From the IMG/VR virus record IMGVR_UViG_2534681697_000027, positions 1-31,309 of that record: DNA of 31,309 bases, one strand, 5' to 3'. Source of the stretch: a virus (lineage: Duplodnaviria; Heunggongvirae; Uroviricota; Caudoviricetes). The notes under the pieces are model-generated. The model was not told the origin of the DNA. It saw only the letters and a list, made by a program, of their open reading frames with translations, and searched no databases. The position numbers and the translations under genes were made by a program. Shown in pieces: positions 2,836 through 4,329 of the stretch. Each line of letters opens with the position of its first letter. The first letter of the stretch is position 1.

Positions 2836-3650
2836 CCTCTGAGCATGCTCTGAGTAAGTCCGGTTCCCTCATACTCCTTTGCAAGAGCAGCAACTCTTTC
2901 TAACAATACAGGAAGATTTTCTGCTGCCCCTTTTTTAGGATTTATCCCTAATCCAATTAGCCCGTTGTAGGCAGGATGCTGAGTGTCATTTTGCGCGGCT
3001 GCCAGTGTATTGAGCAAATTACCAACACCGGAAAAATAAGGCGAATAAGTGCTTTCTGCCGCCTTTAACTCTCCTGGAGTTGCCTGCAATTCATCAGCAT
3101 TTTTCTGTTTCTCTACAACATTACGAGCCATCATGCCAAAGCCAAACGGCCCGGCAACGCCCATAACCGCAAGTTTTGTCCCCCACGATATGGTGGTTTT
3201 AAACAGGTTGTTTAATCTCGAAGTGGTCGTCCGTAGCGTAGAATTGATCTGCTTGTAAGTTTTCAGCGTCTGTTTGGCGTTTTTCCCCAGCCCGCTGAGG
3301 TACTTATCAAACATCGTTTCGCCGCGACCTTTATAGTTGCTCACCAGCGAATCAGGTGTTTTCCCGCTGCCAACAAAGCGCCATTTTTCATCCCTTAAAC
3401 GTCCATCAGTGGAAGCAGCCAGAACTGGCGCGGGTGAAGATGGTTTCCTGGGAGCCTGATTGGCTTCTCCGCCTGTGGTTGTCTGCCAAGAGCCACCTCC
3501 CGGACCGGTATTTGAAGGTATTTTAAGCGGCGTACCGGCAGGGCCAATCATCAGTCCGTTGCGATACTTTTCAAATATCGCCTCAAGCCGCCTGAGGTGT
3601 TCTTCATTAACATCCAGCGTCAGAACTGGCATCTGGTTACCAGCCATCAC
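2836..3650 (-). pseudogene. Tail tape-measure-like protein, N-terminal ~270 codons, 3'-truncated by the IS911-like fragment
   Basis: Start overlaps the stop of the upstream chaperone frame (TGATG); position directly after the two chaperone frames; runs in frame into IS OrfB to give a chimeric 464-aa track ORF. Confidence 0.45.
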
Positions 3651-4329
3651 AATACTCCTGCGGGATTTTTGAATTTGAGCAGCTCACGAAACTGAGCTGC
3701 TGTTTTTACATTTAGGCCGGAATCTGCACAGATGTCTCTGAATCCGGCTCCGGCTGAGTAGTCGAGGATGTCGCTGATGACGTGTTCGCCGTCGCGCCAG
3801 AACTGGCGGCTGATTTCAATGTCGGCAATGAAGCGATCCATTCCGTAAGATTCAATAACGAGCATTGAGTGCTCCATACTCCATTGACCACATCCATAGT
3901 CCCCTTCGCCTGCTCCGGTGAATTTATCGACGAGACGCATGTAAAAAAAATGAGCTCACCCGCCACTTCATCCAAATCAATGATTTCACGCTCCAGCGCC
4001 ATATCGAGAGGGATTGTGTCGTAGCCTTTACCCTCCACTGGGTAAACAAGGTTTGCCAGGCGAATGACCTCATTAACAAGTGTATTACGGACCCCTTTAT
4101 CACCTTCCCAGATATTAGAATCACGCGAGATCCGCTCCAGCATCAAAAAAGCGATACGCGGACCCGCAACGACGCCAAAACCTTCTGAAAAAATGGCAGA
4201 AAAAGTTTTACTCAGAATGAAGAAATGCTCTTTAAACACCTCTTTGCTGATCGGCGTGGCATGGATCCAGCCATTACCCTTTTCTGTCCGGACAGGAATA
4301 ATCAGGTTTAAATTTCGCGCGATTTTCAT
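3647..4329 (-). CDS. Tail assembly chaperone pair: ORF1 4329->3712 and a -1 frame extension ending at 3647
   Basis: Two overlapping frames joined at a U UUU UUU heptamer (minus strand, plus 3943-3950); ORF1 start overlaps tube stop (ATGA); second frame stop overlaps tape-measure start. Confidence 0.4.

Follow-up and report, generated by a model that had tools for sequence, protein, structure and literature searches.

An overlapping pair of reading frames lies directly upstream of the tape-measure-like gene in the virus record IMGVR_UViG_2534681697_000027 of IMG/VR (Duplodnaviria; Heunggongvirae; Uroviricota; Caudoviricetes), where a programmed -1 frameshift in a tail assembly chaperone gene probably joins them. 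The whole stretch of 31,309 nucleotides (nt) was analysed and is referred to below as the window. The first frame, open reading frame 1 (ORF1), occupies positions 3712..4329 of the minus strand and encodes 205 amino acids (aa), from an ATG at 4329 to a TAA at 3714–3712, as read directly from the sequence. It is crossed by a T8 tract (3943..3950, minus strand), which runs from 3950 to 3943 and appears as A8 on the plus strand. The codons ATT TTT TTT (I127 F128 F129) place the heptamer U_UUU_UUU at 3949–3943; the zero frame reads ATT TTT TTT ACA, which sets T_TTT_TTT in the X_XXY_YYZ register.

The second frame lies in the -1 phase. It opens 4 codons 5' of the slip and continues after it with TAC ATG CGT. 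Its post-slip segment, called T (3647..3943, minus strand), comprises 98 codons (YMRLVDK...PAGVL) and a TGA at 3649–3647, which has one base in common with the downstream ATG at 3647–3645. With N for the part of ORF1 up to the slip and Z for its zero-frame continuation, the product of ORF1 is N+Z, and the predicted frameshift product is N+T, with a length of 227 aa. The 76 zero-frame codons of Z double as -1 codons of T over positions 3712..3942 of the minus strand, and the third frame across the region contains many stops. On its 5' side, ORF1 shares an ATGA overlap (4329–4326) with the stop of the preceding gene. Proteins of 205 aa identical to ORF1 are present on more than 1000 contigs. The coordinates that the initial annotation had given for both frames, for the heptamer and for the tape-measure overlap were all recovered by direct reading, and the junction peptide it had deduced after the slip matches the window.

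Two Frames and a Heptamer Compared Across 29 Lineages

A comparison set of 97 loci was assembled, consisting of the window, two close phages (Rac-SA53 and pPE4, about 92% nucleotide identity), three distant phages (Klebsiella RothC and Chronis, Pantoea PdC23; about 33% amino-acid identity), 80 IMG/VR contigs and 11 GTDB genomes. The IMG/VR contigs were retrieved by N-terminal peptide patterns only, so that the sampling is unbiased with regard to the slip site. Three fused variants and one truncated contig were left out before clustering at 85% identity, which gave 29 lineages with a guanine-plus-cytosine content of 37–65%; all lineage counts refer to these.

A zero-frame ORF of 182–205 aa is found in every lineage (29/29), together with a homologous -1 ORF of 95–115 codons which ends at or just before the tape-measure start. 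The slip site itself is conserved as U_UUU_UUY, in register, in 26 of the 29 lineages (25 with T_TTT_TTT and one with T_TTT_TTC), and as N_UUU_UUU (G/A_TTT_TTT) in 2 more. The tract varies in length, being T8 in 17 lineages, T7 in 9, T6 in 2 and T4 in 1, and the register is always the same. The lineage with T_TTT_TTC is one of the nine with a T7 run. This in-register conservation extends to lineages at about 30% protein identity.

Codon choice around the tract is equally constrained. The two Phe codons are TTT TTT in 27/29 lineages despite a local TTT usage of 0.12–0.9 (sum log10 P = -18.8), and they are retained even where this usage is just 0.12–0.3. The codon 5' of TTT TTT ends in T in 26/29, though it encodes Ile, Val, Cys, Thr or Ala, and the base 3' of the T run is A in 28/29, which makes Tyr the first -1 codon. 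Since UUUUUUU is under-represented in all frames of Escherichia coli genes (PMC4066793) and is yet kept in register across the lineages, its conservation is, judged from this alignment, more than chance. Comparison with homologues, which the initial annotation had called for, thus shows that both the two-frame layout and the heptamer are conserved.

Rare Fused Forms

The alternative raised at the outset was a pseudogene, in which a homopolymer indel has split a once-continuous gene of 227 aa. The case said to refute a programmed frameshift was a T7 or T9 tract in homologues whose ORF runs on without a break. Uninterrupted ORFs with a T9 tract do exist, but they are very rare (3 of 97 loci, namely L024, L062 and L067), and the relatives with T7 keep two frames. 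One of the three, L067, has in addition a T6-to-T7 frameshift in another homopolymer, which suggests that its fused form is a sequencing error. In a collection of 5.8 billion protein clusters, four proteins of 226–227 aa were found. One of them (P0121, on 6 contigs) is of the T9 type; the other three (P0122–P0124), considered as T9 fused proteins, were rejected as assorted frame-switch artefacts.

These few single 227-aa ORFs, and the decayed state of the prophage in the window, are what speaks for a broken gene. Against it, the two-frame form is the rule in 29 deep lineages, and at least about 2,700 contigs fall into the largest 205-aa clusters alone. Among complete E. coli genomes, the 696-nt region was matched ungapped, at 91.7–99.9% identity, in 92 of 5,426. 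The T7 and T6 relatives have the same two frames in an unchanged register, and the zero-frame continuation is conserved, open and predicted to be folded. With the fused form so rare and the two-frame layout so conserved, an indel pseudogene appears hardly credible and was rejected. A chance-ORF reading was also discarded on comparative evidence.

Access to the -1 Frame

The T segment bears motifs common to all lineages (YG..F.AD.E.GR.YWRDG, LDW..EGF and FRQRHL). In most lineages, its frame opens 4–14 codons before the slip. No ATG, GTG or TTG is found between the upstream -1 stop and the conserved T core in 8 of the 29 lineages. An ATG directly 3' of the tract occurs only in the E. coli-like lineage, which includes the window.

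This ATG, one codon past the slip at position 3940, could make the -1 ORF an ordinary separate gene producing a free 97-aa protein, and some annotations present it so. The 97-aa family phrog_14324 of PHROGs begins at that Met, and T-like proteins of about 100 residues account for 25 entries among the 5.8 billion clusters. However, the Shine–Dalgarno (SD) match 5' of ATG 3940 is poor (-5.8 kcal/mol or weaker), the ATG is absent outside the E. coli-like lineage, and the Tyr codon just 5' of it is conserved in 28/29 lineages. A separate gene would also leave the conservation of the heptamer and of its codon choice unexplained. Because eight lineages have no start codon and the upstream Tyr is conserved, independent initiation cannot, from the aligned frames, be the mode of expression across the whole family, and it is a highly improbable explanation of the locus.

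A Conserved Zero-Frame Continuation

Past the slip, the zero frame remains open for 54–77 codons in all 29 lineages. The openness expected by chance was estimated by synonymous resampling that holds the T protein, either with uniform codon choice or by permutation of each lineage's own codons. The per-lineage median probability of an open zero frame given T is 0.03 under the first null and 0.13 under the second. Among lineage pairs whose N domains are less than 60% identical, the mean pairwise identity is 31% for Z, 33% for the overlapping T and 41% for N. The identities of Z and T both lie above their synonymous-resampling nulls, with z = 39–57 in the two directions. Within the E. coli clade, nucleotide diversity is 0.08–0.14 at all three phases of the overlap, versus 0.33 at third positions of the N domain.

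Wider searches point in the same direction. A phmmer search returned 693 clusters at 50% identity, which range from enterobacterial prophages to environmental viromes; among the best 150 of these 693, most are 180–230 aa long and align through residue ~175–190. Two residues of Z, W152 and L168, are nearly invariant among 118 proteins that are less than 50% mutually identical. An AlphaFold2 (AF2) model of ORF1, computed on a 118-sequence alignment, has a predicted local distance difference test score (pLDDT) of 91 and a predicted template modelling score (pTM) of 0.81. Residues 1–170 form a single confident fold, and residues 171–205 are disordered. Z contributes to this fold with a helix at 138–152, a strand at 155–157 and a helix at 161–167. 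The description of ORF1 past the slip as Ser/Thr-rich and of low complexity therefore holds for residues 171–205 (~35 aa), whereas residues 130–170 are conserved and predicted to be folded. The disordered tail of N+Z usually ends with a short I-P-x or S-x-P-x motif. The zero-frame tail is a conserved, partly structured coding region, not filler.

In the same model, the F128–F129 pair lies within a predicted helix (119–135). The T segment, modelled alone with AF2 at modest confidence (pLDDT 66), looks like a ~20-aa disordered linker followed by six short helices. As Z is conserved and open in all lineages, and its residues 130–170 are predicted to be folded, the slip would therefore swap the C-terminal module Z for T (205 versus 227 aa), instead of extending a finished G-like protein. 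We lean slightly towards a broader picture, in which this is a widespread chaperone family whose frameshift acts as a module switch. A slip inside a helix would trade ~40 structured residues and a tail for a linker and T, with both frames under purifying selection.

Probable Slippage on the Ribosome or on the Polymerase

A conserved element was also found 5' of the slip site. In most lineages, the codons NNG GAG GTN supply a GGAGGT(G) sequence 13–15 nt upstream of the heptamer. The best anti-SD duplex in this region averages -8.6 kcal/mol across the family, compared with -4.0 in background windows. Synonymous resamples of the same peptides reach -6.1 to -6.5 kcal/mol (z between -4.5 and -5.5), and none of 300 attained the observed mean; the Glu codon of the element is GAG in 19/23. 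The corresponding element of the window is GGCGGGTGA (3956..3964, minus strand), with a duplex of -7.8 kcal/mol and a 6-nt spacer. Internal SD-like stimulators typically lie about 10–14 nt 5' of a shift site. Such 5' stimulators have been described for dnaX and in about 56% of insertion sequence (IS) elements (PMC5009743). From its conservation beyond the coded peptide, we infer that the upstream SD-like sequence is a candidate 5' stimulator.

The scheme which best accounts for these features is the following. Most ribosomes would read through the tract and produce N+Z, 205 aa long, made of a globular domain of ~170 residues with a disordered Ser/Thr-rich tail. On a minority of ribosomes, two tRNA-Phe would slip back by one base on U_UUU_UUU (3949–3943). 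The slipped ribosomes would then produce N+T (227 aa), composed of the first 129 residues, a linker of ~20 residues and a small helical T domain, and would terminate exactly at the tape-measure start codon. In most lineages, the slip would probably be aided by the internal SD-like sequence pairing with 16S rRNA, and a 3' RNA structure is probably not needed. Even without stimulators, U_UU.U_UU.U has been reported to give more than 0.1% frameshifting in E. coli (PMC4066793). We infer, with a probability of roughly 0.7, that programmed -1 recoding operates at this tail chaperone gene, with N+Z and N+T made from one start.

The same two products could arise mainly through RNA polymerase, if one U were added on the T8 tract in some transcripts, which would encode N+T. 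Such transcriptional slippage is promoted by homopolymeric A/T runs in bacteria, Shigella included, with Thermus dnaX, Shigella type III secretion genes and IS elements as known examples (PMC5009743), and it has been named among the reasons for the avoidance of UUUUUUU (PMC4066793). The locus resembles these cases in having a homopolymer at the junction, T8 in 17/29 lineages, where one additional U yields an identical protein; neither the window fold nor the 29-lineage consensus revealed a 3' RNA stimulator. It differs from them in that the known cases involve runs of about 9, the documented efficient ones 9 or more, whereas the runs here are of 6–8 with a fixed ribosomal register. The nine T7 lineages, the two with T6 and the one with T4 always preserve the X_XXY_YYZ register, an argument partly confounded by the conservation of Phe-Phe and Tyr. 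Moreover, the conserved SD-like element would act on ribosomes, not on the polymerase. Taken over the whole family, the evidence from the T6–T7 lineages, from the fixed register and from the SD-like element speaks for the ribosome rather than the polymerase. A mainly transcriptional frame change thus looks unlikely; in carriers of T8, among them the window, an additional U inserted by the polymerase could nevertheless contribute some of the same protein.

Several points weigh against programmed ribosomal recoding in a tail chaperone gene. No stem-loop or pseudoknot is conserved 3' of the site, where the initial annotation had proposed to look for one: the 131-nt fold of the window is no better than its shuffles (z = +0.74), and RNAalifold gives 0 consensus pairs over the 29 lineages. 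In E. coli, U_UUU_UUU shifts relatively weakly, below A_AAA_AAG (PMC5009743). The SD-like element of the window lineage is weak, and its spacing differs from that of the other lineages. One lineage, L082, retains only TCT TTT A at the site. The T9 variant L024 encodes exactly N+T (...ELIFFYMR...), which makes the products of ribosomal and transcriptional slippage indistinguishable, and both N+Z and N+T are here predicted from the sequence. ORF1 and T have no sequence match among the chaperone families of Pfam and NCBIfam, and the several fold matches in BFVD to proteins named tail assembly chaperone are all weak. Finally, the tail module of the window is probably non-functional, because its tape-measure gene is cut by an IS911-like fragment, though the chaperone gene is identical to the copies of intact prophages. 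As to the first of these points, the lack of a 3' structure is normal in phage chaperone frameshifts, P2 included (PMC3091744).

The L082 locus deserves a separate description (IMG/VR 3300034195_000011, positions ~3411–3420). The long tract has been lost in this environmental relative, the site reading GTG TCT TTT ATT, and both frames are open and conserved. This lineage may shift on a U_UUU tetramer or by another route.

Tail Genes and Known Chaperone Systems

The assignment as a tail chaperone rests on synteny and on the expression architecture, not on homology. On the minus strand of the window, ORF1 is preceded by a tail sheath gene (phrog_205, 417 aa, 4781..6034) and by a tube-like gene (phrog_6566, 4326..4769), whose stop overlaps the start of ORF1 and which is assigned on the grounds that, in every relative, it sits between the sheath gene and ORF1. 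It is followed by a tape-measure-like gene (phrog_7694, 2799..3647), of which the N-terminal 283 codons remain in truncated form. The order phrog_205, phrog_6566, ORF1, phrog_7694 is shared by the window and every annotated relative. In intact relatives, the tape-measure-like protein has 633–691 aa and a C-terminal lytic domain matching phrog_2276 (tape measure) or phrog_2013 (lytic tail protein), and depositors have named its gene tape measure or lytic transglycosylase. The order of sheath, tube, ORF1 and tape-measure-like gene fits the chaperone-type arrangement recognized initially from the two frames.

Database searches were less informative. Pfam, NCBIfam and PHROGs gave no functional name beyond 'unknown' for ORF1, T, the tube-like gene or the tape-measure-like gene. 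No structural relative of ORF1 was found in the PDB, and its best fold match in BFVD is an uncharacterised phage protein.

The closest parallel in terms of expression is the G/GT pair of phage lambda which, with its analogues in long-tailed phages (Levin 1993; Xu, Hendrix & Duda 2004), is summarised in PMC5009743. Both gene pairs are flanked by the tape measure on one side and by the major tail or tube gene on the other. As in lambda, a single start codon and a -1 slip at an X_XXY_YYZ heptamer would here give two products with a shared N-terminus, the second ORF lacks a start codon of its own, and a 3' stimulator is usually lacking. The two differ in the place and consequence of the slip. In lambda, the shift on G_GGA_AAG occurs near the 3' end of g (PMC5009743), so that GT is G plus T. 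Here, 54–77 conserved zero-frame codons follow the slip site, which is placed at codon 129 of 205 and within a predicted helix. The outcome would be alternative C-terminal modules on products of similar size (205 and 227 aa), and sequence homology to the lambda proteins is not detectable.

The E/E+E' system of phage P2 (Christie 2002, described in PMC3091744), which slips on TTTTTTG without 3' structure, comes near in other respects: a contractile tail, a U-rich heptamer, a gene between tube and tape measure, and no downstream hairpin. However, P2 E stops shortly past the slip, with a length of 91 aa, and E+E' (142 aa) extends it with no long dual-coding overlap; ORF1 and the T segment, for their part, have no Pfam match. 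By analogy with both systems, N would bind the tape measure and T would recruit the tube protein.

The upstream element recalls dnaX and the IS3 family, where an internal SD-like sequence also lies 5' of the heptamer; the one here is conserved beyond coding need. The dnaX signal differs in its A_AAA_AAG heptamer, its 10-nt spacer, its 3' stem-loop and its ~50% efficiency (PMC5009743); here, the heptamer is U_UUU_UUU, the spacer measures 13–15 nt, or 6 nt in the lineage of the window, and a 3' structure is lacking.

The Surrounding Prophage

The window carries genes for an integrase, an acyltransferase, an antiterminator Q, a lysozyme, Rz, a trkG-like TrkH protein, terminase, portal and tail proteins, together with elements of the IS3, IS110 and IS4/5 families. 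It is an IS-riddled Rac-like prophage. A full-length gene for a TrkH-family potassium transporter lies between the lysis and terminase genes (18615–20090, minus strand); trkG is similarly placed in the Rac prophage of E. coli K-12, which supports a Rac-type identity of the element.

The tape-measure homology ends at about 2799, with 283 of 691 codons left, and abuts the IS911-like fragment that lies inside the gene (2248–2812, no strand assigned), which is 99.6% identical to the IS911 of Shigella phage Sf6. A 464-aa ORF at 2256–3650 (minus strand) is a chimera of the tape-measure N-terminus and a transposase, with rve domains at residues 293–451. The sheath gene has also lost sequence. It is 84 nt shorter than in E. 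coli EC11 (417 aa versus 445 aa in intact relatives), and the two BLAST segments flanking the gap overlap by 24 nt in the window (4971–4994), which suggests a deletion between short direct repeats.

Other features lie further away. An IS3-family element at 413–1686 (plus strand) has an orfA (413–823) that overlaps an orfB (781–1686; HTH_21 and rve domains). Within their overlap, at about 774–780, GGGCAAAAAAGTGG provides an A_AAA_AAG heptamer, the classic -1 site of the IS3 family and a second recoding site in the window. The 915 nt at 7720–8634 have no counterpart in the prophage of E. coli EC11, which is otherwise collinear; they hold two ORFs overlapping on opposite strands (7723–8316, plus strand, and 7730–8245, minus strand), and a Pfam search with the plus-strand ORF gave no match. 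A 398-aa transposase gene of the IS110 family (DEDD_Tnp_IS110 and Transposase_20 domains) is present in two copies on the plus strand, the first (11886–13082) among the head or early-tail genes and the second (21621–22817) close to the lysis genes. An Acyl_transf_3 acyltransferase gene (28369–29472, minus strand) adjoins the phage integrase gene (30173–31309, minus strand), a layout reminiscent of the serotype-converting O-antigen acetylases of Shigella and Salmonella phages.

Annotation and Significance

Thousands of E. coli, Shigella and Salmonella assemblies contain the gene, as do the isolated phages Rac-SA53, pPE4, RothC/D, Chronis and PdC23. In RefSeq, ORF1 is entered as a hypothetical protein, followed by a gap of 64 nt before the tape measure, with no slippage feature. 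The GenBank phage records give the same picture, a hypothetical protein and a 64-nt gap, in every annotated record examined. PHROGs splits the locus into two families, both listed with function unknown. No mention of a frameshift at this gene was found in the literature on these phages, Xu et al. 2004 not being covered. The system would thus be of a known kind, programmed -1 recoding of a tail chaperone, in an unannotated family, and its long conserved dual-coding overlap is unusual.

A conserved tail-assembly protein would come to light if the slippage were annotated. For mechanistic work, the gene provides a U_UUU_UUU site that has a putative 5' SD stimulator and lacks a 3' structure. The locus is also a natural case of long dual coding tied to recoding, over ~200 nt with both frames conserved down to ~30% identity, which makes it useful for studying the evolution of overlapping genes, and of tail chaperones built by alternative C-terminal modules as against the lambda 'G plus T' scheme. 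If the module switch is real, the zero-frame C-terminus might shield or fill out part of the N-domain surface, and N+T would leave this part exposed or put it to another use. The two chaperone forms would then differ in their binding states, and not just by an added tube-binding domain.

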